A stretch of DNA of 64,000 nt from Azolla caroliniana (taxonomy: Eukaryota; Plantae; Polypodiophyta): contig JBHGNT010000011.1 of the NCBI GenBank assembly GCA_043228905.1, positions 16,740,001 through 16,804,000 of the forward strand, given 5' to 3'. A program made the position numbers and the translations under genes. The notes beneath the pieces are model-generated. The model was not told where the DNA came from. It searched no databases and saw only the letters and a program-made list of their open reading frames with translations. Positions 1-23,800 of the stretch are shown piece by piece (the stretch's first letter is position 1; each line of letters starts with the position of its first letter).

Positions 1-195
1 GCCATGTTGGCAGAAGGCAGTGATGACGACAGCAAGAATGAGGATAATGGAAATACGGAGAAAGAGATCGATGGTGAATGTGAGGATGGTAGAACTATAC
101 AGGAAGTTAATGAAGGTGAAAGTGAGGGTGATCAGATTGAAGAAGATAATAAAGGTGAGAATGATGACGGTGAGATTGAGAACAATGGTAGCAAA
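1..195 (+). pseudogene. Truncated inverted duplicate of the DEK gene last exon (acidic tail); continues off the left edge
   Basis: Aligns by eye to 14747-14532 (-) with about 14 substitutions and one in-frame 21-nt deletion (GGNDDGG). Homology stops abruptly after ...NNGSK at 195. Confidence 0.85.
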
Positions 196-234
196 TTCAG
201 CCTTAGATTTTGAAAAAGTGCAGTCCAAATTCGG

Positions 235-334
235 TACATTGTATCGAGTCGCACTCCAAACTCGATACAATGTATGGAGTTGGAGTCCCATCTCGATTCA
301 ATGTATCGAGTTGAGATTCCAACTCGATACATTG
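235..334. repeat. Two adjacent 15-bp inverted repeats (hairpins) built from a CTCGATAC(A/T) motif
   Basis: TACATTGTATCGAGT-10nt-ACTCGATACAATGTA (235-274) and CAATGTATCGAGTTG-6nt-CAACTCGATACATTG (299-334) are perfect reverse complements. Confidence 0.85.
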
Positions 335-734
335 TACTGCGGAAAGGGGTTTAGAAACACATTATCCGTACAATTTAGGGTTTAGGTTTACTTGGAGTCG
401 GTACTAGATGTCTTCTTGCTCGACATGTTGAGTTGTTGGTGGAGTAGGTGTGTGTCGGTGTCCTTTGTGCTCAATTGTCTGTGCTCTGGTGCTCTTGTGT
501 GCTCTCTGTTCGCCGTGTGCAAGTGAGTTAAAAAAGGAAGTGGTCCTATTTATAGGAGGAAAAGAGTAGGGTTAGTTAAACCTAACTATAGTTACGTTTC
601 TATTTTGATTTATTACTACTTAATAGATTAGTTTCGAATACATGTGCACTACTTTAAGTGCATGTACTTGTCTATACATAAAACCACTGACTTTTGTGCA
701 CATGGATTTAGTTGTGCATTTACCTACATTAAAT

Positions 735-3700
735 TATTGTTGAATAACAAACTCTTGTATACCTTTTTAGTTATTTTGATAGCATAGAATAAGCTTGAAA
801 AATGAGCGCATTCAGGAATATTGTATTAGTTTATAGAATATCGAGACCCTACAAAGTGGTAGATAGACTAATGTTGGGAAACAAGGTTCACAAAGTATGT
901 CACAAAGTCATGAGCTTTCTGTTGATGAGTACAATCCAAATGAGGAATCCACGAGTGTAAGGAATGTGTACCAAAGTTCGACACGTGTTTCAAGTGGTAG
1001 ACAGACTAATGTTGGGAAACAAGGTTCACAAAGTATGTCACTTAGTGATGCATTTACCTACATTTATGTGCACGTGGTGATAGCAAGTATTAAAGTACTT
1101 TTAATACTTGCATAATATTATATGCATATATGTACATGCATAAATAGTTTAAAGTACATGTATGGTTATAAATACTTATATATACATTAATGTTTAGAAA
1201 TATTTATTATCATACCTCTATTTAAATATTTTATACTTATTTTCACTTGTATTTAAATATTTAATACTTATTATTATTTTACTAAAGTACATTTATTAAG
1301 TTAAATATCAATTCATATATGAAAATAAATTTTCTATAGATATTATGAGTCATATATAGGTACTATGTAAGCTTAAAGATCTATGTTTATTGTTGAATAA
1401 CAAACTCTTGTATACCTTTTTACTTACTTTGATAGCATAGAATAAGCTTGAAAAATGAGCCCTAACTAACTGTTTTCTGTGGATAAATACCCATTGGTCA
1501 CAGGTTCTCTTTTCTCTATTGAGGAATATTGTATTAGTTTATCGAATATCGAGATTCTACAAAGTGGTAGACGGACTAATGTTGGGAAACAAGGTCCACA
1601 AAGTATGTCACAGAGTGATGAGTTCTCTGTTGATGAGTACGATCCAAATGAGGAATCAACGAGTGCAAGGAATATGTACCAAAGTTCGACAAGTGTTTCA
1701 AGTAGTAGACAGACTAATGTTGGGAAACAAGGTTCACAAAATATGTCACAAAGTCATGTGTTCTCTGTTGATGAGTACGATCCAAATGAGGAATCGACAA
1801 GTGCAAGGAATGTGTATCAAAGTTCGACAAGTGTTTCAAGTGGTAGACAGACTAATGTTGGGAAACGAGGTTCACAAAGTATGTCACTTAGTGATGCATT
1901 TACCTACATTCAATTATGTGCACCTATTTTTGTGAACTTTTTTATGTGCATGTGGTTTTTAGAATTGTGAATGTGCACTAATTTATGTGCACGTGGTGAT
2001 AGCAAGTATTAAAGTACTTTTAATACTTGCATATTATTATAGGCATATATGTACATGTATAAATAGTTTAAAGTACATGTATAGTTATTAATACTTATAT
2101 ATACATTAATGTTTTGAAGTATTTATTATCATACCTCTATTTAAATATTTTATACTTATTTTCACGTGTATTTAAATATTAAATATTAAATATTATTTTA
2201 CTAAAGTACATTTATTAAGTTAAATGTCAATTTATGTATGAATTTTTTTTTTCTATAGATATTATTATTCATATATAGGGACTATGTAAGCTTAAAGATC
2301 TATGTTTATTGTTGAATAACAAACTCTTGTATACCTTTTTAGTTATTTTGATAGCATAGAATAAGCTTGAGAAATGAGCCCTAACTCACCGTTTTCTGTG
2401 GATGAATACCCATTGTTCACAGGTTCTTTTTTCTCCATTGAGGAATATTGTATTAGTTTATCGAATATCGAGACTCTACAAAGTGGTAGACAGAATAATG
2501 TAGGGAAACAAGGTTCACAAAGTATGTCACAAAGTCATGAGTTCTCTGTTGATGAGTACGATCCAAATGAGGAATCTACGAGTGTAAGGAATGTGTACCA
2601 AAGTTCGACAAGTGTTTCAAGTTGTAGACAGACTAATGTTGGGAAACAAGGTTCACAAAGTATGTCACAAAGTCATGAGTTCTCTGTTGATGAGTACAAT
2701 CCAAATGTGGAATCGACGAGTGCAAGGAATGTGTATCAAAGTTCGACAAGTGTTTCAAGTGGTAGACAGACTAATGTTGGGAAACAAGGTTCACAAAGTA
2801 TGTCACTTAGTGATGCATATACCTACATTCAATTATTTGCATCTATTTTTGTGAACTTTTTTATGTGCACGTGGTTTTAAGAATTGTGAATGTGCACTAA
2901 TTTATGTACACATGGTTATAGCAAGTATTAAAGTACTTTTAATACTTGCATATTATTATATGCATATATGTACATGTATAAATAGTTTAAAGTACATGTA
3001 TAGTTATTAATACTTATATATACATTAATGTTTTGAATTATTTATTATCATACCTCTATTTAAATATTTTATACTTATTTTCAATTGTATTTAAATATTT
3101 AATATTTAATATTATTTACTAAAGTACATTTATTTAGTTAAATATCAATTTATCTATGAAAATAAATTTTCTGTATATATTATTATTCATATATAGGGAC
3201 TATGTAAGCTTAAAGATCTATGTTTATTGTTGAATAACAAACCCTTGTATTCCTTTTTAGTTATTTTGATAGCATAGAATAAGCTTGAAAAATGAGTCCT
3301 AACTCACCATTTTCTGTGGATGAATACCCATTGTTCACAGGTTCTCTTTTCTCCATTGAGGAATATTGTATTAGTTTATCGAATATTGAGACTCTACAAA
3401 GTGGTAGGCAGACTAATGTTGGGAAACAAGGTCCACAAAGTATGTCACAGAGTAATGCGTTCTCTGTTGATGAGTACGATCCAAATGAGGAATCGACGAG
3501 TGCAAGGAATGTGTACCAAAGTTCGACTAGTGTTATAGGATCCAAATGAGGAATCGACGAGTGCAAGGAATGTATACCAAAGTTCGACTAGTGTTATAGG
3601 GACTATGTAAGCTTAAAGATCTATGTTTATTGTTGAATAACAAACTCTTGTATACCTTTTTAGTTATTTTGATAGCATAGAATAAGCTTGAAAAATGAGT

Positions 3701-3877
3701 CCTAACTCACCGTTTTCTGTGGATGAATACCCATTGTTCACAGGTTCTTTTTTCTGCACTGATGAATATTGTATTAGTTTATCGAATATCGAGACTCTAC
3801 AAAGTGGTAGACAGAATAATGTAGGGAAACAAGGTTCACAAAGTATGTCACAAAGTCATGAGTTCTCTGTTGATGAG
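735..3877 (+). repeat. Nested tandem array: ~920-bp units (some truncated), each containing 1-3 copies of a 138-bp subunit and, in complete units, a very AT-rich spacer
   Basis: The anchor TATTGTTGAATAACAAAC recurs at about 735, 1388, 2308, 3225 and 3628. The 138-bp subunit shows as 46-aa repeats in ORFs 1479-1970 and 2374-2880. Confidence 0.9.
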
Positions 3878-4131
3878 AAATGCATTGATTGCTTGGTCAA
3901 CGAGCTGAACAGAACCTCCTTCCGAACTAGGCCTCGACAACGAAGAGAATGCCGCTAGAATTCGTGCATATCGATGTATGCTACGTAGACACTAAGTCAT
4001 ATGCCAATTCACAATATTTTGTGACCTTCATTGATGACTAGTCGGAACTTGTGGGCTTTCGTATTGAGGACCAAGGACCAGGTGCTATCGATCTTCAAGG
4101 AGTTCCAAGCGAGAGTCGAGAAGGAGATCGG
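3878..4131 (+). mobile_element. Ty1/Copia integrase fragment (degenerate)
   Basis: Translates across frameshifts as KCIDCL...PLEFVHIDVC...SQYFVTFIDD*..LWAFVLRTKDQVLSIFKEFQARVEKEIG, the Copia pre-integrase CxxC and rve core start. Confidence 0.85.
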
Positions 4132-4240
4132 TGTCGTGAAGGATTCCGGCCATAGGAAGAAACGGAGCCGGATGCGCGTGAACGTGTGTGCACTAATCCA
4201 TGAATAAAGCTGACAGTAGTGTTGCATCTACATGTTTCGT

Positions 4241-6520
4241 CTACTCAGCTAAATCTTGGCTTTGATCAAACTTTGGTACATTTTCGAGGTTGATAAGTTT
4301 CCCTCCGTTGTTTATAGGTTCCATCACTTCTTTGCAGGTCAGCTGAAACATCTCAATCTCATTGATATGCTTTGCCCTAACCTCTTGGTCTCGGTCGGGA
4401 CAATCCCATATACCTTGGATCCTTATCTTAATGAAATTGACTTGGGAGGGGTCCTTCTCCAATGCAACGGAACAATTTGAGAGTGCATGTAGTCGTCGTT
4501 CCTAAATAAACAATATGTAAAAGTTTTGAGAAAAGTTGATAACACTTATGAGAATACATGTTCCATAGAATAAGTTGAGCACCCAATCGTCAGGGTTGGA
4601 GAACAACTCAACCAATCGATTAATTAATCACTAGGGCTTTTGATACGAGTTTACTAGACACTTGATATAGTTTAATTAATCGCAATTTCTTTGTTATAGT
4701 TGACGACACTTTGCTCAATTCGCATGTGCCTGAGCCTTCTTTTTAGAAATAGCGTGGTAGTACCCCATGCATATATGCTCCACAACGTTGACCATTCAAT
4801 CGCTTGAGGTACGAGTTATGTTCGTTTTAACCCTATTTGTAATGGAGTTGAAACAAGTCAATATATATGTCGTAAGTACAATAGAAGCCATATAGTAAAT
4901 ATGTATCAACTCAAAGTTTATCAATGCATGTGTTCAATGCAGTAGTGACCGATAAAGCTTGACCCATACTATAAAATATTAAGATGCGCCATAATGGAAC
5001 CAAGGTTAGCTCTGCAAAGTCTTTTATCATCTTCTTTATTTGCGGATATTTGTATGGTACATCGTTGTATGTGGAGCCTTTTATTCGAAGTCCATATGGT
5101 ATATTCGCGATGAGTAATGTATAATGTCTCTAGGGTAATATGTCAATCATATTACTTGACATATTACCCACATCGCCATTATATACACTATAGTACAATT
5201 GTAAAAAAGGATCACTCTTTTGCAAAAAACTTTTCATAGTACCGGAGTGTTTAGGCACCTCCAGCTCCTTTCCTTTTGTCATTCGCTTTTCATATTTCGC
5301 TCATACCAAATGGATAAAGGCGCTTGGTATGCCGTCACTGTAGTCACCCATTTTCTTTGAGCGATGTGGTTTCTGCAATTATACGTATTGTAAGAAGCTA
5401 CCCATTATCCTAAAATCAATTAATATTCGTAAAACATACATACCCATTCTTTAAACACAATGAAGAATTCTTCAAGAGCCTTATATGGTGATGTTTTTGG
5501 GCACGATTGCTCTACTTCTTCCCACGTAGGCAGGGACAACTTTTTCATCATTAGCTCTTGTATTTTCATATAAACCTTATGGCTAAAAACAAAAGAAACT
5601 AAGGTTAGAATAAAGAGCAAATCAACAAAGCAATCCAATGAACAACAATCATCACATAGATTACTCACGTTTGAAACTTTGTCACCATTTCATCTAGGTT
5701 GAACTCCTTTACGACCACTCATGACAATATAGATATTAATAATATGTCATCCTTTATCACTTGCAATGATTGCGAAGGAAGCATCTTCATGTCCTTGGCT
5801 AATTTTTCAATCACTAAGTTGCTTTTCCGTGACTTAGACTTTATCTCCACTTGTGGGTCTAACTTAGCCTTCTTTGACCTTTGCCCCTTTATTTCTTTTA
5901 TCTCCACATACTAAAAATTCAATCTTGGAGGTCTCTCACGTCCCTTGTTCCGAAAGCAAGTTGAAACCAGGAGTCATACTTCCTCAAGCCTTTAGACTTT
6001 GTGCTTTCATCAACTACTATCCCCACTTCAAGCTGACATTGTCGTCACAATCCAAGATGCAACCTAGGACCAAAGTTTTGCAAGGCATCAAGGTACTCGT
6101 GATGAAAGAACCTAATGCGCACTATACATGACATCTTATGTCTATAACCATTATCGTTATTGTGGTCCTAAGCTAGCAACTTGGCTTCTTCATGTGTAAG
6201 GCCAACGTACACTTTACATTCTGCGTATTTGAAGAATGGGGTAAGAGGATACTCCTTGACAAGTTGACATTGTGCTTCGGCAAAGTGGGATCCTCCAATC
6301 ACGTAGTATGTGTAATCATCAGTCGAACTGTACTTGAAGTCAGTTACAGTTGGGCATTGATCTGGGTCTACCATTACTAAGAATGGTACTACAGTAGCAT
6401 GTGGATTTATCTTCATTTTGCTTTTCAAGTTTTGCACACTAAATGTGGCTTTCTTATCTCTAGAGCACGTCTTCTTGTTTCTAGATCAATTAGTGGCCTT
6501 TGAATAGAACAAATTGGTTA
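4241..6520 (-). pseudogene. Decayed intron-containing ParB/Srx-like + beta-class N6-adenine/N4-cytosine DNA methyltransferase fusion (~650 aa reconstructed)
   Basis: ParB-like YYVIGGSH (6308-6285). MTase motifs in beta order: VYNGDV...LLIANIPYG (NIPYG 5105-5091), (W)VKTN...EHICMGY, YQKP (4645-4634), LVELFSNPDDWVLNLFYGT-(G)TT (VLNLFYGT 4582-4559), VALEKDP..V.FIKIRI. GT-AG introns at 5668-5583, 5443-5373 and 4557-4502, plus a degraded one ending at 4833. Multiple stops and frameshifts. Confidence 0.8.
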
Positions 6521-6647
6521 AGTAGTGTTTTTTACACACATTTATATTAAAAATAATTGTGTGTTTTTACCAAAAAAAAGAGAAATCTAATTTAAAAATA
6601 AATAAACAAATAAAAAACATAAGAGTAATCCGAAATTTGGCGCATAT

Positions 6648-6695
6648 GTGTGTGTATACATACATACATGCATGCATGCATGCATGCATACATAC

Positions 6696-6730
<35 letters not shown>

Positions 6731-6920
6731 ATAGAGAGAGAATTAGAGCACTCATGATTGTTATTACAATAAAGAGGCTCGCATTCGTGTGGGGATGGAT
6801 GGATGGATGTATACATGCATGTATGCATTCATGTGGGGATCGATGGATGGATGCATGCATGGGTATGTATAGTTACCATTACCCATGGGTATATGGGCCA
6901 ATTTTCGCCTTAGAAGACGT

Positions 6921-6966
<46 letters not shown>
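6648..6966. repeat. Compound microsatellites (TACA/TGCA/TA/GGAT/CT)n
   Basis: Directly visible; these generate the spurious ORFs at 6559-7110. Confidence 0.95.
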
Positions 6967-6967
<1 letters not shown>

Positions 6968-6969
<2 letters not shown>

Positions 6970-8250
6970 CTCATTAGTGACGCCTTCCCTCATGTATGCA
7001 TCAGTGGTTTGGGCTCCAGGGCTACCATCTTTCATGTGGATGCAATTCGAGAGACCATTGGTGACGATGTTATCACATCTACTCTAAAGCAAATCAAAAG
7101 TACCACATGACATTATTAGAGTTGAGTTCACTTTACCCCTGATGTTAGTAGAAGCATTTTTGCAACTTGTAGTTTTTATTCATAGGATACATAGCCAACC
7201 ACAAGATAGGATATATCGTCATGCTTTTGAGGCATCTCGATTGCTCTATGAGTTCAGAGATACTAGCTCTTGGTATAGTATTGTGGTGAGTTGGCTTCTT
7301 GCAAACGGCCAAGACATTAATAACCTACCTCCCCTTAGGTACAACCATGAGATGGATAACACTTTAATATCTCATGAGGACCGTAATAAAGTAATACACC
7401 AAGAAATATGGCAAATTTACACTCGATATAAATGGATCAACTCACTAGAGTCACTCCCATCTAAAATGTTGTACTATAAGCCTGAACACTTCATGCACTT
7501 CTCTAAGTTAGGTTTTATTACACGACCAAAATATCTAGATACATTCTTACCAAATGCACTAAGGGTTGCCATTTGACAACTTACAATATCATCTCACCAA
7601 CTTGAGATTGAGAATGGTCGTACTAATGGAGATTAAGGAAAGGATATGTAGATGATGTCACGTGGAGATAGAGGATGAGTATCAATTTAAATGCAAGTGT
7701 TCAACTTAGGCCGAGATACGGGCAAAATACCAAGATATAGTCTGACCCTCTCCAAACTATTAGATACTCCGAATATAAATAAATTAGGTAGATACATCTT
7801 AGAGCTAAAACAAAATAGAGATAATAAGCTACAAAATGTTATTACAATAACCTTTCTAATATTCACCAACACATCATTAGTGAAAAATTGTAGGGACAAG
7901 GGGAGATGATGAATGTGGACACACGTGCACCACTCGGCCTCTCTCTTGCTGAAGTAGAAAACCAAAGAACAACCAAATGCCCTTGGATGCCAGGCTTCAA
8001 AGCAACTCGATGTGGTGTAGATGCAATTCAGAAGATAAGGGAACGTGAGTTACACCACCTAGAAGCGATGGTTGGGGTGCCTTTTACATTAAGACTACGC
8101 AACACACCTACGTTGAAACCCTTTGACTCTCGCTTCTTTTCAAGAGACTTGGATGCACCATAACACGTTTTGTACAATACTAGAACTTTTTTAAGTTCTA
8201 TTTTATTTTATTTTTGTTTTCGATGATTGGGTAAACTCTAGTTGTTGTTT
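6968..8250 (+). mobile_element. 5'-truncated non-LTR retrotransposon (LINE), ORF2 C-terminal part and 3' region (family A)
   Basis: LVTPSLMYASVVW-like start, LRVAI*QLTISSHQLEIENG...ICR*CH...EDEY zinc-finger region. Collinear with 47240-45670 (-). Confidence 0.8.
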
Positions 8251-8289
8251 TTGTTACGTAGTTATTTATCTTTATAGCATATTGCTATG

Positions 8290-9000
8290 ACGAGATGATG
8301 AGTGTTGATGGTGTGGGGGCTGAAGCAAATATATGAGGGGATGAGAAAACATTCTATACTCATTTTGGCATTATTTGTATAGGAACTTGGTGGTAATCGG
8401 CGAGATGGTTGATGTGGACTTAAGAAGCAAATTATTTTGGGGGATAAGCATGAATAAAGATGGTGTGGGGGTTGACACAGATTATCATGAGTAGGTGAGG
8501 AAACTGTTTACACTAAATTTTTGTTGTCTATATAGGATGTTGATGGCAAGCTGGTTGACGTGGGCTTAAGAAGCAAATTCTTTTGAGTGATAAGGATGAG
8601 CGAAGATGGTGTGGGGTTTGAAGTAGATTATCATGAGTAGGTAAGGAAACTGTTTACACTAAATGTTTATTGTCTATACAGGATGTTGATGGAAATTAGT
8701 GAGATGGCGAGCTCAAGCTATTGAATGAAGAAGATTTATGTTTATCATTAGGACGAGTGATATTGGTGTGGTGGTAGGGATTGAAACATATGAATAATGA
8801 ATATCGACATGACGAGAGGATGAGTGATGATGGTGTGGGGGCCGATGTTGATCATAAGGGAAACACTCTAGATTTATTTTGTTTGTTATTTGTACAGGAA
8901 AGTGGTGATAATCGGCGAGATGGTTGATGTAGACTTGATGAAGAAAAAAAATATTATGGGATAAGGATGAGTGAAGATGGTGTGGGGGTCGACGCATGTT
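8290..9000 (+). repeat. Degenerate direct repeats (~140-180 bp) containing GATGGTGTGGGGG
   Basis: The motif recurs at about 8307, 8459, 8605, 8828 and 8975 with shared flanks. Confidence 0.65.
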
Positions 9001-9641
9001 TTTTTTTGAGGTTATGATAAAGCGAAAATTGACATAGGTAATGTGAGAATATGAAAGTTGTGATGAACCGGACTATTGATGGATTATTCTCTTCTTGTGA
9101 TAAATCGGTTTGTTGAGGGGTTGTAGAGATGAAGTAATTCCAAGTGCATGCGTATCATGGTAAGTTTGTTGTCTACAAATGCAGCAATTGCAACAAGTGT
9201 TGAAGAACAACGATTTCCCAAGATCTTGTCATGCATTTCAATGAAAAATTGGTTTACAACCTACATATCTTTGAGGAGGAAGTAGATAGGGTAAAGCAAT
9301 TGATAATATCAAAGACCAATTGAGTGATTGTCGATGATCTACTGCGGAAGACCTCGAAGGAAGTATTGAAGACTATTCTTCATGTTTATTTGGCATGTAC
9401 ACAAAATAATAGTCATTATTTGGTTTATGTTTGTTTCGCATGTCAAAGACCGGTTTAGTGATCGTGGATAATTTATTGCGGAAGAGTTCGAAGGAAATAT
9501 TAAAGGTTATTCCTTATGTTTGTTTGAAGGAATTATCTTTACCTACAAACATTGGACTGTTGGACTATTTTGTATATTGCCTTTGGCCATTTTCATTTTA
9601 ATACCAACGGAGTATTTTTTTTCGAAAAAAAACTTAAATTT

Positions 9642-9720
<79 letters not shown>

Positions 9721-9727
9721 ATATATA

Positions 9728-10073
9728 GGAAAGCGCTATGTGCCCCCCCATTTTGGCTATCACCTCGTTCAACAACATGTCTCAACAAGCGTCTTCAGCT
9801 TCAATTATCGATAAAACCTTCACCGAGAGAGGGGCTCTAATCAGTTTTATCAAGGACCATTTCCATGCTCAGAATATCATCGTTGTATTGGATAAGCAAA
9901 GTACTCTACCGGTCCCAAATGTTCCAAATGTGGTCAAGCTAGTCACAATGCACACACTTGCGATATGCGAGAATCTGAGTTATGCTGAGTTTATTAATTA
10001 ATTAATAAACAATTTCATTTGGTTATATTAGGTTCTATAAATTTAGGGGGCGGGGGGGCAAATAGCGCTTTCC
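9728..10073 (+). mobile_element. Non-autonomous MULE-like TIR element (internal deletion derivative) inserted in a (TA)n tract
   Basis: 22-bp TIRs GGAAAGCGCTAT(G/T)TGCCCCCCC at both ends. The interior joins an N-terminal piece (MSQQASS...TFTERGALISFIKDH) to a C-terminal CCHC knuckle (KCSKCGQASHNAHTC). Confidence 0.75.
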
Positions 10074-10099
10074 TATATATATATTATATATATATACAC

Positions 10100-11620
10100 T
10101 AAACTTATTATTATGAAATAATGTCAACTAGTAAAACATTCTATTGTTGTTTTGTGGACTTCAAGTAAGCTTTTGATATTGTCTCAAGGAGTGAGTAAGC
10201 TTTTGCAAAAGAATGATTGAGATCGGAATGCAATTAGTTTATAGAAACGGTTGTCGCACGATTGTATGAGCAAGTTAGGTGGCAATTGGAAATGGATAAT
10301 GGTCTTCTCACAATATACTTTTTTCTTACATTGTACCATTGGAAATGGATTGGATGGTCAAAAACTCATACATGAGCTTATTTTTAAAGCCCTATATGTC
10401 AGTGATGTTGTTTTATTATCATATATTTTGGATGATATGCAACACTTACTTGATGTATTGGAGATATTCTCTCCAATCGGCGGTTTAACTACTAATGTGG
10501 ACAAAACAAAAATGATAGCAGTAAAGACAATACCCCATTTTTACATACAAGGTGAGAATAAATACAAGTGGTGCAAAGTTTTAAATATCTTCCTATTAAT
10601 GTCCCATCGACAAATAAGTGGAATGTATGTTATGAGTATAGAGTTCAAGCATGTTGGAATTGTTATTATATGTTTGAGATTCCATGCAACCAAAGTGATA
10701 CTCGAGATGGGAAGTGAAATCGATGCTATTCAAAATGCTATGGTGGTCCAAGTGTTGCTTTATAGAGTGGGGTGACATTATCTCTACTTAGTTCATGGAA
10801 TGAAATACAAAAAATCCAAATATTGTTCTTACATAGACATTGGGGGTAAAATCCTCAACATCCTATCTTGTAATGCTATTAGAAACAAGTGGTTGGCCTA
10901 TTCAGGTACTAGGAATGCAAAGAATATACAATTACATCATAAATTTCAAGAATATGCTTTACTATGGATTGCCAAAACAATCTTGCAATATATGATGCAA
11001 GGTAAAAAAAAACTAATAAGGACAAAATCCTCTTATTCCTGGGTTCTTGACATTATGAAATGGCTTAAGAGATGGGTAGTAAAAAGATCTATTGGAGCTC
11101 TCAAGTGATGTTATAAAGTACGTCATCATCGAGGATAATTAGATTATTGTAGCCTTTAAGGATGATGTGGTGAGATACTAAAATACCAGAATTGGAAATT
11201 TGGCCCCAATGTAAAATACCCCCATGAGCGATGGCTTTGAAAGAGCCTTAACACTTCTTCAAACTCCCTCACACAAATTAGGTGTTGAGATAGCGTCACC
11301 TAATATGAAAATATCCAAAGTACAATGAAAACCTAGAGGAGGATGAATTCACTTACTTATCGCATGCTTGCCGTATAAGGTAATTTGTGAGAAATATGAT
11401 GACTTATTAGATGGGCAAGATTATGTAAGTTTCGTACTCAAATGTCCACCAAGGATATATGTGTGCATTATTTTAGCATAGAGAGTTTTTATAACAAAGT
11501 ATTAACCCCCATTCTTAGGAAGGAGTCACATACAAGATGATATGTTGATTCAGGAGGTCAAATTTGGCCTCCTCATGCATGATAAAACCTATATCCTATT
11601 CTATTTTAGTCTAGTCTATT
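10100..11620 (+). mobile_element. Degenerate LINE, RT domain to 3' end
   Basis: YCCFVDFK*AFDIVSR and LYVSDVVLLS...GLTTNVDKTKMI RT motifs. Ends in an AGGAGGTCAAATTTGGCCTCCT stem-loop and a CTATT-like tail. Confidence 0.7.
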
Positions 11621-14426
11621 CCATGACTTATTGCCGCTTACGTCTTTGCATGCCCCAATTGTGATATCTTCCTAATGTGTTGGAGATCGCGAGGTGCATT
11701 ATGCAAATTGGCAGTTACGTTAAGATATCCCATAACATGCTCTCTCTTAACTAATCCACAATGCATTGGCTATGTCCCAAGTAGACAAACAAATATGAAC
11801 AAAGGAATATTTTATAAGAGAGTTTTGACAAGGTGGAGTGGTTTTACTCTACACCGAAGTATTTATTTAAGTCAACAATTAGAATTTAACATGGGGGTAA
11901 TTACCTGTATGTACATACTTGATGTACAATCTTGGGGCACTTCTTAATACTAATGTAATATCTTTCTTTGGAAAAAAATGATATGAAAGTGTTTGTGGAC
12001 CAATGGAGTATTCTACCAACTACCAAATGTTACATTACAAGACTCATGGAACAAATCAAGAGTTGAATGCTAATGCATGTATGTTGGAACTTTAAAAATA
12101 TGTATTTCTTAATTCATTTGAATATACGAGGACTTACTGAGATCAATCATAACAAGCTTTGGGTCAAGAGATCCATGGATATCACAAGAATGGTTTTAAG
12201 GTCATCAATTATTGTAAGGAAATTTGAAATGAAATCAGAACAAGGTTGTTGCCTTCCCTCGTAGTGCTTATTCTTCTTGACGAATATAAGGATGTCAACC
12301 ACACCACGTTTACATGCATAAGAATCAATACAAAGTGCAATCATTTTTTGTGTGTGAGTGTGTGAAAGGGAGAGGTACGCATGTACCATGATCAACACAT
12401 GAGAGGACAAAAGAGGCACTAGAGAATACCACGACTAGGTGTAAGGAGACTTTCTCAGGTAAGTGAACCCCCCCCCCCCCCCGGCTGAGAGTTTAATGAT
12501 GATCTGGTTTAATCCGATTTCTACGTTACGAGGAGAGTTTGAAAGCCTTCAAGGGCCCTCAGACGCAAGTGAAGAAGCTAGAACTCGATTCCTTCTAAAA
12601 TGGAGCGGCTCTTCGATGCTACAAATGGTGGATGGCAAAGTGAGGTGGAATTATCAACCACCATGGTAGTTGTTCGCTCCGAGTGTGTCTAACATATAGA
12701 TGGGTGCTACCATGAGAAGAGAGTGGAGGATGGCTATGTTAAATTTGGGTTTTATGAGGCTCACGTGGAGGGTATGTTGTCGAGCAATGCTATGCTCATC
12801 GAATAATGTGGTGTTTTGGAGTTTTATTGTTGTTTCCTTTACACATGTTGTTTTCTTTTCGACATGCAAGTTGGCCTGTAAGATATGAGTTGTATATTAT
12901 CCTATGTACATTGCCTTAACTAATGGAAGTAGTTTTTTTTTTTAATACCACGACTAGGACCTAAGAGTTACCAAGGCCTAGATATCCTTGTCAAGGCACA
13001 GGAAGACATAAGGTGTGCAAGAGATAACATACAAGAGAATATATAGGTACCAACGGAGGCACAAACTACGGTTAAGACACCTTCCTTTGTATCTAATGAT
13101 GAGCATAATCTAGCAAACCTTACTTATGAACACATGTGAAATGGAACAATCTTAATATGTAACTAAATGGAGGTGGTTACATTTGTATCTTGTTTGGAAT
13201 GAAATGATCAATTGGTCCATAAACCCTATGTTTTCATGGATAGCCCAATTGCCAATATGCGTAAAGCTTGTAACTATCTTTTCTCCTCCAAGTAATATTA
13301 TATCAATTTATAAACATTGTTGGAATGGAAACTGCATTATTTAAGTTTTAAACGGCAAAACTACTTTTTGTGCTTTCAAGTAAAGTTAGACCAACTGTTT
13401 CATGTGTTTTCCAATAGAATTATGAGCTTTTGTAGCCATTGAACATAGCCAACTTGGCAAATTCCACTTTTTTTATGCATAATGCCATTGTTTTGATTTC
13501 CCTCCAAAATTTTATATTCTTTTTTAGATAATATGGATTTGCTCACAACCCATGATCCACAAATTTTGTATGATAATCTTTACTTGCCAACAAAATCATA
13601 CCTCTTGAGATACATGTATCATGTGTGTACTTGCACTATTTTACTCAAGTTTTATGAGCACTCTATCAAGTTTATCTACATGAAATCTAGAGTTTCACAA
13701 GTAAACCTTGCAAATTAACATGCAGTCATTTGTGGATTAACTACAAGTCAATCTCTAACATGATTTATAAAGACAATAGTTACATGTCGAGCCTAATTGT
13801 GTACAAAAGTTGATGGGCCAAGATAGTTCAAATTAACACCAAAAGTTGCCAATTCCTTGTAAATCTACTGCAAACCTGTGAAGATATTTAAGATGGGACA
13901 TAAGTTCACACAGCAGCTCAAATAAACCCCGCAGTAAACACACAATGAATTGATCACATAAAATAGAACACTCGAACCATAAAAACAATGGATCAAAAGG
14001 ATTTCAAATGCATGCCATTGAGACGATAAACAACAATTGATGATGCAAATCATGCCATTGAGATAATAAGCAATGATTGATGATGCCAACATAAAAATCA
14101 TAATGTGATGAAATAGCTTTTAATTGGATCTCCCATTTTCTAACCAAGGATAATATCCATTTGTCCACTGATCAACAGTTGGGGGTGGGGATCTACCTAA
14201 CAACTAGAGAGGCTCTTTCCATGAAGTAAACTTGATCACTGCAGAATCTCGCTCTCTTTGCAATGCCATACAAAGTTTCAGGTTTATAAAGTGGGGAAGG
14301 AATGGGATCTTTCACTAATAAAATCATTGTACAACATTTGCTACAAATTTCATTGTTGCGGACCAGCCACCTTTAGTCTCTGTTTTGCTATCTACAAAAC
14401 CAGTACTACAGTCATTTTTCCATAGA

Positions 14427-17400
14427 TCAAGCTTCAGTGTCTGCATTCTCATTACATTCAATGTCATCCATAACACCATCACCACCACCATCATCATCAG
14501 TATCTTTCTCAGTTGAAACATGAGCATTGTCTTTGCCACCATTGTTCTCAATATCACTGCCATCATTCTCACCTTTATTACGTTCTTCAATTTGATCACC
14601 CTCACTTCCACCATCATCGTTGCCTCCTTCACCTTCACTAACTTCCTGTATAATTCTACCATCCTCACATTCACCATCGTTCTCTTTCTCCATATTTCCA
14701 TTATCCTCATTCTCGCTGTCTTCATCACTGCCTTCTGCCAACACGGCTATCTCAGCCTGTATTAGAGCTTTGACATGTGCCTTATTGCTGAAAACTTCAA
14801 GCCCAAATTTTTTACCTGCAAAGAGAATATTAGATTTTTTCCATGTTTAAGGTATGGTTTTTAACAGAGGATCAACTTATCAAGGTGGAATAACATACCA
14901 AGCTGCTTCAGAATGTCAGAAAATGTCACCTACAAGGCCATCAAAGCCTCCGTTAGGACATAAACAGCATTGAAAACATACAAAGCTCTAGAAAGACTGC
15001 TTATAATTCATACCTTAGTAAAGTCTGCATTCTTCAGAAGTTCCCGTATCACCACTTGCAATTCCTCATCACTGGGTTCAGCCTCCACATTTGGTACCTT
15101 ACCTGATGGAAGGAGATTATATCATCAATTAGATCATTACATTTTCAAACTATCAAATAGGGAAATATGGGAAATACCCCATTATTCACTATCTGCCAAG
15201 AAAAGGCTCATAAAGCTAAATAATAAACAACAGTTCGCCATGATTGGCTTTTGAAGTCGCATCCCTTTTTTTGGATGCAACTTTCATTGTACCTTCATCA
15301 TCATTTGGGTGCTTTAACTTCCTTGTAGAGCTCTTAGCAGAATTCCTTCTCTTTTTGGAACCTTTAGATTCAATATCATAATCATCATCCTCACTGTTAT
15401 CTTCAGACTCGACATCTGCTTCTATATTATCCTTGTTATCAGTACTACTATCAGCATCCACTTCTTCATCCGAACTATTATTATCACTTTCTGCTTTAGA
15501 GTCCTTCTTTTGTCTCTGTACACAATCATTTTTCCCACAACAATATGAATACATACTTTGATCAAAGTAAGTCCTCTTGGATAATGGGAAGATAAAGACG
15601 TACTTTTTGTGGAGTTTTTCGTGATGTTTTCTTCTTTTCTTTTGCAAGCTTTCTCTTAATCTTCTTCATCTTGGAGTCCTAAGAGATAAGCCAATTCAAT
15701 AAGTCAAAAACAGCTCCTTTATATCTTCAGACTGTTTCTTATTAGAAAAATATAGGTTAAGCAAACCTTGACTTTCTCTTCGATAAGCTTGTCAGTTGTC
15801 TGGTGAGGAGACTCTAAAAAATCTAGCAGTTTGACAACCGCATCCTCCTGAGAAATCAAACAACGGTGTCATAAACTGTTCATATGGAAAAGTGAAGACA
15901 ATTTACAAAGCACCTCACCTTCTTGCTTGACTTGGAAATATTCATATCTAAAAGTTCACTCATTTGTATAAGGTTTTCTTTCACACACTTCTCTAGCTTT
16001 TCCTTGACCTTCGCCTTCTCCTTTTCCTAAATAACATTATCAAAGGGGTGTATCTTCTGATTAGGAGAATAAACCCAAAGTTATATGATGGAATTTGCAA
16101 TACTAAACCCTCTACATACCTCATTTGCACACCACACATAGCCAGAAAATTGCAGAATGTTGCCTTTCGCAACATGAGACTGCAAAAAAAAGTGAGCTGT
16201 GACCACAGTGTAGACATATAAAAACTAAAATTCACAATGTACATGACTGAGAGATAAGCAATTGATCACATCATATAATGATAGCAGTTACAAAATCTAT
16301 GTTTATAATCACTTAATTTAAGAATGATATCCAGCTGCAGTATGCAATTTCCCTATATGAAAACACAACAGAAGCACATTGCACTATCATACCTTCAGAC
16401 ATCACACTATTATAAGATTTATAAGATCCCACTAACAAAATGTATGTTATGATTGATGAGCAAGTATATTAAGTGTGAATAACTACTACTTGTCACGCTA
16501 GAAAGTTGGTAAAAGCAATTGCATCTCCAACACAGAGATTTCAATGCTTTTGTAACAAAAATTCTAGATGTGAATAACTACTGCTTATCAGGCAATAAAG
16601 TTGATAAAACCAACTGCACCCCTAAAACAATGATTTTGATGTTTCTGTAACAAAAATTCCAACTATTACATGTCAGGCAAGAAAATTGGTAAAACCAATT
16701 GCATCCCTAATACAGAGATTCAATGCTTTTGTAACAAATATTCTAGCTCCTTTCACATCTCAGTTCAGAATCAATCAGTGAATCATGCGAAAAAAATAGT
16801 ATACCTTCGCGGGTTTTGCAAACAGAACCCTGTGAAGTAACTGCACGACTTCATCGCTTCCCTTCCGCTTCGAAAGTTTATACACCACTGCGAGATGGCA
16901 AGAAACTCTTGTAGTGTGCACAAGGATAGAAACTATACTTAAAAAGTAGAGAAGTAATGCCACAAATCTCATATATTAATAAAAAGATGGGCATTCTCAC
17001 AACAATTGAAGGGATTCATAGGTGTGTTCTTACAGCAATAACATCTTACCATTAGGGATATCCTTAAGGGGTGTACCAGAACCCTGCAGAAAACATGGGA
17101 AAATGTGGAATTTTAGCCGAAATAAAATGAATCCTACAGCTCTCCATCTTCTCTATATACCTCAAATTAATAGGAATACATTATGCATCGTGTAACTTTG
17201 ATGAAGTGACCTATATTACATACTGAAATGAAACCTACATATACCTTTGAGAGATAGAATACCATCACATAATTAGGATCCATGTCTTTAATAAATAACC
17301 TATTACATACTGAAGTGAAACCTACATATACCTTTGAGAGATAAATGTTCCGCGCATACCTTCTCTATCTTAAATTCTTTGACTTCCTTCTCTGCAGAAG

Positions 17401-17569
17401 CAACAAAACGGTCAACGGATCTGCGCTCTCTGGAAGGCCTGTCGAGTGTGGGGGTGGACGGCTCTTTCCGTTGCCGTTTCCTCCCGTTCCTAGAAGCCAT
17501 TTCGGTTGCCCCTTCATCGAGACCCATCTCCATCTCCATCGCCTGTATCACAACGCCGTTCTCTTCCAT
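14427..17569 (-). CDS. DEK: DEK domain-containing chromatin protein (11 coding exons)
   Basis: Exons 17569-17360, 17083-17050, 16887-16805, 16179-16120, 16026-15919, 15847-15767, 15678-15604, 15515-~15293 (or ~15239), 15102-15014, 14929-14899, 14815-14427. Motifs RPSRERRSVDRF, GSGTPLKDIPNV, NILQFSGYVW, and DEK_C (PSDEELQVVIRELLKNADFTKVTFSDILKQLGKKF). Confidence 0.92.
16470..16746. repeat. Three ~90-bp degenerate tandem repeats in DEK intron 3
   Basis: The GCTTTTGTAACAAAAATTCTAG-type motif recurs at about 16546, 16640 and 16725. Confidence 0.7.
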
Positions 17570-18071
17570 ATTTCCTCGCACCCCTACACGGAGCTCCTTC
17601 TTAAAGTAGCGCGCCGGCAATTGAACAGAAATTCGTAGCAGGAGGGAACAAAAAAAGAAAAAAGAAAAAAAAAGAGCGGGGGAGGTCAGGAGAGAGGAAG
17701 ATTTCTTTTCCTTTTTCTTTTTCTTCTGCGTTTTCTTTCTTCCGTCTGCGTAATCTCGTTCTTCTGTCGAAATTCTCTGCGTTATCTGCTTCTTCTTCTT
17801 CTTTGTATTCTTTCTGCTTTCTGCTGTCGGCGTTGCTCGCTCGCTCGCTCTGCCCTGTCTTCTTCTTCCTCTCTCTCTCTCTGTGTTTTCCCTCTCTTTT
17901 TGTTTCGCTCTCTCTGAAAACAAAAATGCTTCCTTCCCTCCGTATGTCTATCTACATATACGTACAATATATGTATACATATAATATACGTAGACGTACG
18001 AACGTACGTATTATGTATATGTATTCATATGCATACGTACAATAGGGTTAGGGTATGCATGTGTTTACATG

Positions 18072-19603: not shown

Positions 19604-22600
19604 CTATGCTTCTTGCCATGATATAACCAAGTGTTGAACACATGTAGAGCACGAAATCCTAAGTGAAATACATCCATTCAGTAATTGCCACCATGAAGCC
19701 TTAATCGTTGTCCTCCCATGTGTTAAACCCTTGTTCTCTACGAAATATTGAACAATAGATATCCATGGTTGTGAGTTTGAACACATGTCTTGTAATAATG
19801 AAAATCTACGAGCCATCATATGCTTGGATAAGTTCAATATTCCAGTTCCCCCAAGCGCTTAAGGGTTGCCAGATGATTCCACACAACCCAAGTGCTTCCC
19901 ATCTTATCCCTCTTCTTCCACAACAAATATCGAAGAGGTTGCAAAATAGAATGCAAAGCCTTCTTTGTCCATGGCAACAATGGCAAGTAATATAATATCA
20001 TGGGTTCCATAATACATTGCACAACCTTTAAGCGTACATGAAATGGCCAAGATTGTGACTTCCAATACATGAACTTATCCCTCAACTTATTAGACATCCA
20101 TTCAATCAATTGACCATTTGTAACATTCGTTCCTAATGGATAACCCAAGTGTCGAAAAATAGAGCCTTTCTTCACCACGGATCCTTGCCATCCTAAACAT
20201 TCCAAATCCCTTTTAGTACATGATATGAGACTAGACTTCCTCCAATTAATATGTAATCCGGAAGCCAATGCAAATTGGTTCCATACAATTATTGATGAGT
20301 GTTTCGAGCATAAGCCATGGTCATTTGCACATTCAACACATTATGCAATATATTCCTATTTGCAATAAAACCATATTGGGCGGGATGTATCAACTTTGGC
20401 AAATACTTTTGTAATCTATTTGCCAAGACCTTTGTAAATATCTTATACAACCCCCCCATCAAAGAAATAGGTCTCCATTGATGAAATGACTCAGGAGATG
20501 CCATCTTTGGAACTAATTTAATTAGACCAACCTTCCAAGCTTGAGGCATACGACTAGAATCCCAAGAATGTTGAAACATCAAAGTTAAGGGCCCCTTTAA
20601 AATGTTCGAATACCGCTTAAAAACTTCATTTGTGAAGTCATCCCAACCAGGGCTCTTACCACTAGGACGATGCATTAAAACTTTGTCCACCTCATCCTCA
20701 GTGAAATCCGAATCCAATTCATGACTAATGAGGTCATGCACAATACATCCAACCACATCATAAAACTCATGACGTGCTCTACTCACCTCATTTGTCATTA
20801 ACAATTGTGGGCTAGCAATCAACTCCTTAAAGAAATGAACACATATGTCAATTATTGTAGTAGGATCCTCTATCCATTAATCCCCTTTATTCACATGTAC
20901 CACATTAAATCGAGCATAAGTAGGATGTAACGCTTGGAAAAACAAATGAGATTGACATTGATTATCTATGAGCCCATCCCTCAGTTGTCGCATCTTCACA
21001 TAACGATAACTTTGGCATTGCAACTGAGAAATAATAACATGCAATTGACTTTGGATATCCAAAAGCTCCTCATCTAATGGTGCATGTATCAATAATGCAT
21101 TACACCTGGAGAGAACTTGTGAGAATTTTCGAAGAAGACCTCTTATTCGTTGAGCATTAGTTACTCCATACATACGATGAATGATCTTAATGTTTCGTAA
21201 CGTGATATCCCATGCTTTAACTCCTTTAAGATTCACTTTTTGTGAAAAATTTACCAAAATTTGCTCCATGAGAGAATCAAAGTGAGGTTGAAGCAAAAGA
21301 GAAGAGTTAAAGTGTAATGGAGGCTTTCCAAGTAAGGATTTATACATGTCAATTGCATGATTACAAATCTCCAAACAAATAGGAAAGTGATATGAAGTTC
21401 CTACATCTTGTAGAACTTTCATACAAAGTGATGTTGTTAAAAAAGAATCATTGTGCATCACATGCATTCTATCTAACCGACTCCATGTTTGTCTATGTTG
21501 AGCGGATTGGAAAGTAAAACTTGGATCATTCCCATGCAACCATGTCCAAACATCCAACTTCAAAACCTCCATAGCCAATGAATCCCAAGCAAGTTGCTCA
21601 GGATCATCCATGATTAAATGTTCAGACGTAGATTGAGATGCATCAACACACATGTTAAAATCACCCATAAGTAATCCTGGACGACCCACACATAGGGTGT
21701 GAAGGAGTGAGCCCCATAATGCAATATGTTGAGTGGCTTGGTTAGGAGCATAAATCCTAACCACCCACACAACCTCGCCAAAAAAGTGATTTCTAGAACC
21801 AAAGCCGACCATATGGAACATTATGCACCACTTGAGGATAATATTTATCCCGCATGATTAATACCACACATAAATAATGATTATTAATATGTCCTGGATA
21901 GAATGATGAATATCCACGTAAATGAATTGTGGATCCTGCTAACTAATGACACTTATGCTCAACTGCATATAATACATCCCATTCTTTACTTAACAAAGTT
22001 TCCCATAATATATACTTCTTATGAGGAGAACATGTCCCTCTCACATTCCATGTTACCACTTTCATTCAATCAACAATGTTATGGGTGCACTTGCTCCTTT
22101 AGAGCAACCGATGTCATGAAACTAGTCAAAGCATGCTCCAAAGCTGCATATGGATTTTCATGCACTACATCCTTAGGGTTGTCTATCAAAATCTTTTGTT
22201 TAGGTTCTCTCATTTGATGAAAACCTCGAGAATTCGATGAATTTACAACCCGTCCCAATGAATCAAATTGAAGATGAAGGGGCCATCCCTTATCCCTAAA
22301 TTGTCTTTGCCAAGGAACTTTTCGAGGAGCCTCCCTAGTTCCTGAATTTCCTTTCCAAGTAGTATCACGAGTAGTGGGCCAATTATTACGTTTCATATTC
22401 ATTGATTTCCCCTTTGACTTGCCCTTAACCTGATGCCAATCCTTTTCAACAACAACATCACTACTAGTTCTATCCAACGGTTTTTCCCCCTTATCTATAA
22501 CCACCAAACTTTGTTTTTCCATATCCATAGATTGAGTTCCCTTATTCTTAGGGTCCAAACCTTGAACTGAACCCTCTTTATAACCTGCTCTAGATGATGT

Positions 22601-23800
22601 TCCTTTATTCATAACAACCACAGTATCTGACCCACCAACATCTCTCCCAACTCCTTCCTTACCATTCCCTTCATTAGGAACCTCTATAGTTGAAGGACAA
22701 CTATGATGGCATTCTACCATAAAGTGACCCCATTCACCACATCCAAAACAAAGACCTGCAAATGTCTCCCACTTCAATTTTAAACAAAGTCTTTTCATAC
22801 CAAGTGTGTTCATACGCACCCATCTTGGCCTCTTACGACTTGTATCCCATAACACACAAAATTTGCACTTATTTGTAGCATTTGCATGTGGAGATACCAA
22901 CACTTTACCCATTTGACTCATCAACTTTGGTAAAAGTGGCCATAAAAAAGCATGCTTACAATGGCATTCTTGTTTTAACAAAGCATGATAGTCCACAGTG
23001 GGGGATCACTGCATTACATGCACCAACCGTTTATCAAAAAACGTAGGAACTTTAGCCAACAATGCACTTCGATGTTCCGGTGAACGAAAGACTACATCAT
23101 AAAATCCTCGTGGTCTTGCATATATATTTTGAACACAATTTGGTGACACAATTGTGTTCAACCATTGTTTAATCCAATTAATGTATGGGAGTTTCTCGGT
23201 AAAAACTAATATAACCGCACGATCATAGAATACATCAAAAGATTGCAACACTGCCTTAGCATCAACTTCTACATCATGCACATCTTCATCAATGCATTCT
23301 TTTGCTTCATTTTCATTTTCTTCCACAATATCAGACAACAAGGTATTAGCAATTCCCCATAATTTATCCCAATTACAATGATCCTTGTCAACCTCATCTA
23401 CATGTATTACTTTCGCATATGTCAATTTTTTCTCATTAATTTCTTCAATACGCTTAAACCTCTTAGAGCTTCCAATGTCTTCCCTTTCACAATTACATTC
23501 AATCATCACATTACTCTTTTTTGGATCAATTGTTTCCATATCGATGTCCCCCACAATTTGTGAGGAATTCATGTTTATATCTATTATTCTTGAGGTGATA
23601 TCGATCCGAGATAAAAACAATTTTCCATGAACAAGAGATACAACCAGAACTCACTCGATTGAAGAGGTCGAAGATGATGAAGGCAATAGAAGATCTGCAA
23701 TGTGTGTTAAGTATGTGGATGCCGAAACCACAAGATTCCTTATTTCTATCGTTGTTTCTTGTACAGACCACCAAATTTAACTTGCTATACCTCGTTACGA
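19604..23800 (-). mobile_element. L1-clade LINE: ORF1 (CCHC knuckle), APE endonuclease and partial RT; decayed, 3'-truncated
   Basis: ORF1 23620-22079 with CFGCGEWGHFMVEC; endonuclease IYAPN, MGDFN, WSRLDR; RT GKSPGWDDFT, WRPISL, QYGFI, then GLHINWRKS and FRHLGYPLG. Confidence 0.92.

Follow-up and report, generated by a model that had tools for sequence, protein, structure and literature searches.

Which gene, and whose, lies hidden on the minus strand of one 64,000-nucleotide stretch of the Azolla caroliniana genome (hereafter the window, meaning the whole stretch analyzed)? An earlier note, made from the letters alone, had read there a ParB/Srx-like domain fused to a beta-class amino-methyltransferase—the enzyme class that writes N6-methyladenine (6mA) or N4-methylcytosine (4mC)—and had raised the possibility of an uncharacterised epigenetic system, with the gene probably carried as mobile-element cargo. 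Is this gene real and intact, what do its relatives encode, and does it belong to the host or to a transposon?

A decayed gene copy in the window

The gene is real, and it is dead: positions 6517–4241 (minus strand) hold a decayed, 5′-truncated, intron-bearing copy of a ParB–methyltransferase gene. Every minus-strand motif quoted in the earlier note was located, in the order given, from 6299 to 4241: IGGSH (6299–6285; GGxH in the family, placed by motif alignment and sequence reading), NIPY (5105–5094), VKTN (4831–4820), YQKP (4645–4634), NLFYGT (4576–4559), VALEKDP (4468–4448) and the terminal TAG (4243–4241). Five exon remnants are separated by three clean GT-AG introns and by a fourth whose acceptor lies at 4833 and whose donor, at about 4910, is unclear. 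The reading is interrupted by at least nine internal stops (nine were checked codon by codon), and the frame switches near 6440 and near 5905 (both in the large-exon remnant), within 4832–4558 and near 4470. Where a relative can be aligned to the stops, it has Arg at four and Trp at one, a pattern that would fit deamination of methylated cytosines. The nearest relative, P0177 (a 500-residue open frame from a cluster of 40 members), begins to match at its residue 216, which corresponds to window 6517, and by this alignment at least 215 codons are absent from the front of the gene. What survives comes to ~650–660 codons. The ~650-aa product proposed earlier therefore holds as the length of a remnant and not as that of a complete product, since P0177 carries 215 extra residues in front.

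Read along the minus strand, the large-exon remnant (5669–6517), with the ParB/Srx-like domain and a helical region, aligns by tblastn to P0177 residues 216–499 in three frames at 67–78% identity (78% over window 6437–5868) and is broken by stops at 6170, 6047, 5921 and 5721; its counterpart in the structural model of the homologue P0049 has a ParB/Srx fold. An 86-nt intron read from the sequence (GTGAGT...TTTTAG, 5583–5668) follows, and it is at this first intron of the window gene that P0177 and four other open frames of 497–500 aa stop (frames of this length occur in 5 of the 15 members listed for the P0177 cluster). Beyond it lie a short linker exon (HKVYMKIQELMM...FKEW, 5444–5582; 38% to residues 405–451 of the Adiantum protein P0105), a 71-nt intron likewise read from the sequence (GTATGT...TTGCAG, 5373–5443), and an exon (4910–5372, 3′ boundary uncertain) where the methyltransferase domain begins and which includes motif IV, NIPY; this exon matches P0007 at 66% and contains stops at 5303 and 5132. 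The next exon (4558–4832), with stops at 4798, 4633 and 4630 and a frame switch in its middle, carries VKTN, YQKP and NLFYGT, the remnant of the SAM-binding motif I. A 56-nt GT...AG intron (4502–4557), read from the flanking sequence, falls within motif I; if this clean intron is spliced, the motif I G codon reads T-GA across the junction, i.e., as a further stop. The last exon (4241–4501) completes motif I and, with one frameshift on the way, runs through VALEKDP and the tail to the TAG; it is 36% identical to residues 514–630 of the Ginkgo protein P0008.

The motifs themselves have also drifted, as the window has N in place of the family D in motif IV, and NLFYGT against the family's D-x-F-S-G-S-G-T in motif I. 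A Pfam scan of the window pieces, with X at stops, gave a PF01555 match in the VKTN–motif I exon (E 2.9e-4, 21.3 bits, below the cut-off of 26.7) and a weak DUF6551 match, and PF02195 was absent from that scan; a homologue search from the decayed C-terminal piece returned no matches.

Homologues, motifs and predicted folds

A chance read-through was rejected on the number of relatives. P0005, a one-frame X-read-through of window 6485–4917, matched 259 proteins at E ≤ 1e-3 (104 at E ≤ 1e-10) when used as a phmmer query against 1.84 billion representative proteins, and tblastn matches of 155 proteins to the window were confined to 4253–6517. The two domains are fused in single chains of Chara braunii, Riccia sorocarpa, Adiantum nelumboides and Ginkgo biloba, just as the reconstructed gene had been read; P0008, P0011, P0016, P0046, P0047, P0049 and P0171, among others, are such fusions. 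The clubmoss Diphasiastrum complanatum has the methyltransferase part only, inside a chimeric gene model, and outside plants the amoeba Clastostelium recurvatum has a full-length expressed transcript (P0148) with a degenerate motif IV, DTPT. The organism was looked up for 30 homologues (drawn from 150 listed phmmer matches and later finds), so this host range is a minimum; there were no flowering plants among the named homologues of these 30. A quick tree of 30 rows, 10 of them under half filled, is unrooted and names no donor; in it the window copy is sister to P0177 on a seven-fold longer branch (0.27 vs 0.038), and one genus holds several divergent clades. At least 11 different gene models of the family, many of them incomplete, come from Chara.

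For structure we relied on an AlphaFold2 model of the complete-looking homologue P0049 (mean pLDDT 69), compared with 48,161 chains. Residues 525–766 matched CcrM (Z 22.9, rmsd 3.0, 217 aligned) and the beta-class enzymes M.BceJIV (Z 22.0), M.MboII (21.0), M.PvuII (19.2) and N4CMT (19.2–19.6); unpermuted methyltransferases stayed under Z 6. Motif IV precedes motif I both in the window (NIPY at 5105 before NLFYGT at 4576, minus strand) and in P0049 (561–567 before 724). The C-terminal domain of the family is thus predicted to adopt a permuted beta-class amino-methyltransferase fold, the class to which the gene had first been assigned. Of the two Pfam profiles that the earlier note had proposed as a check, PF01555 scored above its cut-off in homologues (7 of 26 above 26.7, e.g., P0008 with 65.7 bits and P0049 with 39.9; 3 of 4 family members in another Pfam scan) but not in the window pieces, and PF02195 found no match.

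The N-terminal region is predicted, from the same model, to have a ParB/Srx fold, in agreement with the ParB/Srx-like N-terminus read in the window. Residues 98–234 matched PadC (Z 9.7, rmsd 2.7, 95 aligned), KorB (8.4), SerK (8.3), sulfiredoxin (7.8) and pNOB8 ParB (7.7), moderate values that were taken from the whole P0049 model and not from the domain folded alone. Altogether eight ParB/Srx matches occupied ranks 21–28 (Z 9.7–6.5, residues 85–275), with unrelated rows at Z 5.7 or less. At the level of sequence, Pfam, NCBIfam and PDB searches of the family found no match to PF02195, TIGR00180 or PDB chains, and a profile of the ParB region found no match among PDB chains.

Motif conservation was counted in 190 proteins, which contributed 210 domain rows, with motif IV covered in 55 rows and GGxH in 101; many of these rows are fragments, perhaps from few hosts, so the counts are not independent. 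The GGxH His is kept in 97 of 101 rows and is followed by S in 67, T in 8, G in 6 and L in 6, with R in the amoeba row P0148. ParB CTPases of the Spo0J type carry the Arg of a GxxR motif, whereas the plant family mostly has Ser after GGxH (67/101). Motif IV begins with D in 47 of 55 rows, N in 5 and S in none, which favours the suggestion that NIPY in the window was once DIPY. Its second position is I (32), F (14) or A (6), otherwise L, T or V, and never P; P occupies the third position in 50 rows, and the fourth is Y in 42, C in 8 and H in 4. The motif I G is kept in 15 of 17 rows and YQKP in 16 of 19. The DPPY-type 6mA writers CcrM and M.RsrI differ from the plant family in their second-position P (0/55 in the family), and this lack, together with Cys for Tyr in 8 of 55 rows, suggests that catalysis is perhaps altered or lost.

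Which base would an intact enzyme modify? Beta-class domains have evolved 6mA and 4mC specificities repeatedly, and Ser marks most 4mC enzymes, according to the accessible text of PMC8885841. Asp and not Ser at motif IV leans towards 6mA for the plant family, and the top two structural matches of the P0049 methyltransferase region are 6mA enzymes, although Z scores fail to separate the two groups (N4CMT 19.2–19.6 and PvuII 19.2 vs CcrM 22.9). Membership in the SPPY 4mC group of MpDN4MT1 and N4CMT was rejected, as S is found in none of the 55 motif IV rows; the likeness to these Marchantia and rotifer enzymes, which read (T)SPPY and to which the earlier note had pointed, is weak.

Copy number and the likely vehicle

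The window gene belongs to a many-copy repeat family and is not a host gene. Ten public runs contain part of the stretch (no RNA run was listed among the holders, which has no bearing on expression), and in the four examined for contigs over window 3400–7400 we found 2385–4170 contigs per run, totals that include flanking repeats and whose summed depth does not equal copy number. Most were <95% alike, the gene was covered throughout, and a shared difference at 6148 inside it recurred in 27–41 contigs per run. A single-copy host gene was accordingly rejected on the thousands of diverged contigs over the gene region in four runs.

One related locus (L001), obtained from a metagenome scan covering 1/64 parts, preserves the gene start that the window copy has lost. 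It has a TATA box at 568, a short first exon (MNKGKKPT) with its ATG at 693, and codons for P0177 residues 1–46 at 1210–1347, followed by unrelated DNA. The opposite strand carries an ORF (422 to 3, where the contig ends) that is 49–54% identical to P0193–P0195, of which the full-length P0194 and P0195 carry DUF7869 (E 1e-51), so that at this locus (1/1) the ParB–methyltransferase gene and a DUF7869 transposase-like gene are arranged head-to-head. P0194 offers candidate acidic residues in IIDGMDQ (364), QLDN (445) and GHTHDHID (482), and a DDD transposase is a feature of Sola DNA transposons (PMC10741241). We infer that the DUF7869 gene encodes a Sola-type transposase; the transposase model has a pLDDT of only 28.8, and a PDB sequence search with the transposase-like protein found no match. 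P0194 also has an extra C-terminal domain at residues 745–850 (FWIAKIL...VVHWY), possibly of a chromatin-reader fold, for which Pfam gave no match.

Host contigs joining L001 375 to 735 across the promoter were found, one each in two of the four runs, at 80% likeness; repeats can produce such joints, and we take them as a hint only. The linkage of gene and transposase comes from this one locus and the two contig joints. L001 is mostly <80% alike to host contigs, and its palindrome block (873–960) is the deepest-covered part. Neither the window nor L001 displayed a whole element, terminal repeats or a target-site duplication, and 18 X-read frames over window 1–4202 and 6501–14702 gave no transposon domain in Pfam, with 2 stray matches. 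Taken together, the window gene is likely to have served a Sola-like cut-and-paste transposon as an accessory gene. The many copies and the DUF7869 neighbour in L001 support the idea of mobile-element cargo, and the evidence points to an accessory gene of a selfish element where the earlier note had considered an epigenetic system of the host lineage.

Palindromes and surroundings of the gene

L001 contains two exact 17-bp palindromes, TCGATGCA(G/C)TGCATCGA, at 877 and 929 (0 of 200 shuffles gave two), which lie in the leading intron region of its ParB–methyltransferase gene. The window has four candidate binding sites of this kind (TCGATRCANTGYATCGA, 1–3 mismatches) within 231–340, at 231, 262, 293 and 324, and these are all of the matches in 64 kb (chance mean 0.79; four anywhere in 1 of 100 shuffles). 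The palindrome arms contain CG, and the spacings—31 nt in the window and 52 nt in L001—are near three and five helical turns. The likely origin of the window palindromes is a further copy of some related element. Facing them on the minus strand (400–554) are a TATA box (554) and, at 426, a short Lys-rich start, MSSKKTS, laid out as at the 5′ end of the L001 gene; from this layout 400–554 may be the 5′ end of a ParB–methyltransferase gene, and blastn of L001 found no match to it. On the plus strand, 809–3880 consists of tandem copies of the 5′ part of a DUF7869 transposase-like gene, in which MSPNSPFSVDEY...FSIEEY recurs with a period of ~919 nt; an N-terminus profile from five transposases scored 26.4, 24.7, 24.1 and 15.9 bits there (at most 9.9 in 20 shuffles). 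Window 231–3880 looks like a scrambled copy of the L001-type junction of gene and transposase; it and the 6517–4241 gene may have arrived together or in separate insertions.

Several further features surround these pieces. A fragment at 3870–4200 (plus strand), bordered by the transposase-like repeats on one side and by the gene's 3′ end on the other, resembles a copia integrase start by eye, without Pfam support, and is deeply covered in host runs. A very high-copy repeat, probably a LINE-like remnant (6983–7700, plus strand; related ORF at 46759–47127), lies next to a (CT)n run and to the point where the gene is broken off at its 5′ side. Tandem 146-nt units carrying splice-like signals follow at 8279–9000 (plus strand), and at 9718–10083 lies a small element whose 32-nt ends are inverted copies of each other (97% complementary) and which has TA repeats on its flanks. 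Abutting the palindrome array, 1–195 is an inverted duplicate (90–94% alike) of an acidic exon that a neighbouring gene has at 14532–14747, and may be a piece of host sequence that came to lie beside the element by capture or copying. That neighbour (14324–17947, minus strand) is a host gene which we take to resemble a DEK-domain chromatin protein, although the exons scanned gave no DEK match in Pfam. Farther along are a nearly complete LINE (19834–23650, minus strand; reverse transcriptase PF00078, E 2.3e-8) and exons at 24940–25374 (plus strand) that presumably resemble a polypyrimidine-tract-binding protein, for which Pfam gave no support.

Comparison with known systems

The plant family extends to streptophytes a kind of algal ParB–methyltransferase cargo that is known but predicted only. 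The closest design is Sola1-1_Ec32, a 21.5-kb element of the brown alga Ectocarpus, in which a 1104-aa gene with ParB-like and N4C/N6A methyltransferase domains lies on the strand opposite the transposase, as in L001; in the accessible text its authors propose, by prediction only, self-binding and self-modification, cite similar green and red algal proteins, and name the moss element Sola1-1_PPa as the best match of the transposase (PMC12477816). With that design already described, the earlier claim of an uncharacterised kind is unsupported. The resemblance is one of described design, and there are differences: the supplement terms the Ectocarpus gene Ectocarpus-specific, whereas the plant family is found in streptophytes, and the accessible account mentions no palindrome array, whereas L001 has palindromes (PMC12477816). 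In the red alga Bostrychia, the transposon cargo genes PAG2 and PAG3 likewise supply a PF01555 methylase and a ParB-like domain, and tandem arrays of inverted repeats next to the ParB gene PAG3 have been proposed as its sites; there, however, the two domains sit in separate genes of an EnSpm/Plavaka element, ParB being joined to a 2OG oxygenase and the methylase to a SET domain (accessible part of 10.1101/2025.02.11.637652).

Relatives of prokaryotic type, which the earlier note had expected, are found among phages. The named Atlas clusters nearest to the Chara homologue are phage ParB_N + N6_N4_Mtase fusions (scores 0.87–0.88, at the level of a lead), and phage tblastn matches covered the methyltransferase part only, at 23–29% identity; the four that were opened are stand-alone genes, two of them beside terminase genes. 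Phage fusions and ParB–terminase loci have both domains in the same order as plants (PMC4738411, accessible text), but the phage fusions are about 400–480 aa, whereas the plant proteins are 700–860 aa, contain a long helical insert and come from genes with introns. A second chlorophyte-type Dam family with a ParB-type HTH is of the group-2 M.EcoKI/M.TaqI-like type, whereas the plant model matches permuted M.MboII-like enzymes, and the accessible text of that survey lists no land-plant clade of the ParB–methyltransferase kind (PMC4738411). Nor did we find a land-plant report of such transposon cargo in the open literature; subscription papers and Repbase reports may hold one.

Two other eukaryotic systems share part of the design. 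MpDN4MT1 (Marchantia) and N4CMT (bdelloid rotifers) are also bacterial-type beta-class amino-methyltransferases in eukaryotes but, unlike the plant family, they are host genes and shown 4mC writers, and the accessible accounts mention no ParB domain. To our knowledge, the VANC protein is unrelated to the ParB–methyltransferase. In the VANDAL/VANC system of eudicots an accessory protein binds its own element and alters its methylation, with loss of 5mC shown experimentally, whereas for the plant family amino-methylation is predicted (accessible part of 10.1101/2025.02.11.637652).

A self-targeting cargo model and its alternatives

We propose that an intact ParB–methyltransferase cargo protein binds the palindromes of its own element and writes a mark, likely 6mA, on its own DNA, a reading to which we give slightly better than even chances. 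The shared promoter would drive both this protein and the transposase; the ParB and helical region would dock on the palindromes inside the element; the methyltransferase domain, if active, would convert adenines near them to N6-methyladenine; and the mark may hold the shared promoter in an open state or set the timing of transposition in the face of host 5mC silencing. The broader proposal, that from charophytes to gymnosperms one transposon family kept an active phage-type ParB–methyltransferase writing 6mA at its own helically phased palindromes, is more tentative, and we would sooner expect it to fail than to hold.

Might the cargo bind without methylating? A pseudo-enzyme could bind or flip bases and so shield the element or recruit host factors. 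The non-canonical D-x-P-Y, the DFPC or DxPH form in 12 of 55 rows, the DTPT of the amoeba copy P0148, and the statement in the accessible text of PMC4738411 that methyltransferase domains borne by DIRS1 are likely inactive all speak for it. Against these, Asp, Pro, Tyr, YQKP (16/19) and motif I are conserved from Chara to Ginkgo, and a phage match annotated as a DNA methyltransferase (L005; by annotation only) also reads DLPY, and we consider a pure binder unlikely. It is distinctly unlikely, in our estimate, that the cargo gene targets its own element with N4-methylcytosine. Fold matches to N4CMT and M.PvuII come close to that with CcrM, the palindrome arms offer CG, and both specificities arose repeatedly in this domain (PMC8885841, accessible text), but the Ser typical of most 4mC enzymes occurs in 0 of 55 rows and the best two structural matches are 6mA enzymes.

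The remaining alternatives concern the vehicle and the owner rather than the chemistry. The gene may travel with a different transposon superfamily, with a Helitron or with an endogenous virus, or may switch vehicles, the DUF7869 neighbour in L001 being incidental; that neighbour was seen at one locus only, and red-algal accessory genes move among Plavaka, Mutator, Zisupton and Fanzor elements (10.1101/2025.02.11.637652, accessible part). The head-to-head layout is nevertheless hinted at in host contigs and at window 231–3880, the opposite-strand arrangement agrees with Sola1-1_Ec32, and two scans of viral contigs—a weak test—found no relative, which makes a different vehicle quite improbable. 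Very improbable is a domesticated host methyltransferase like Marchantia DN4MT1 whose dead duplicates were scattered by chance: spliceosomal introns, a TATA promoter and the spread across streptophytes would suit a host gene, but very many diverged copies, at least 11 Chara gene models (many incomplete), several divergent clades in one genus and a transposase-like neighbour do not.

The window copy is a fossil, and its value is only as a pointer to its family. That family offers material on which self-targeting cargo can be tested, namely the complete-looking proteins P0049 and P0171, a 17-bp candidate palindrome and many copies for long-read methylation. If the proposal is true, a plant transposon would address an epigenetic mark to itself, and localised 6mA in the large genomes of ferns, liverworts and gymnosperms would have a defined enzymatic source. 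If active, the enzyme would write a mark other than 5mC from within land-plant transposons; it would also amount to a methylation module that targets itself and looks programmable.
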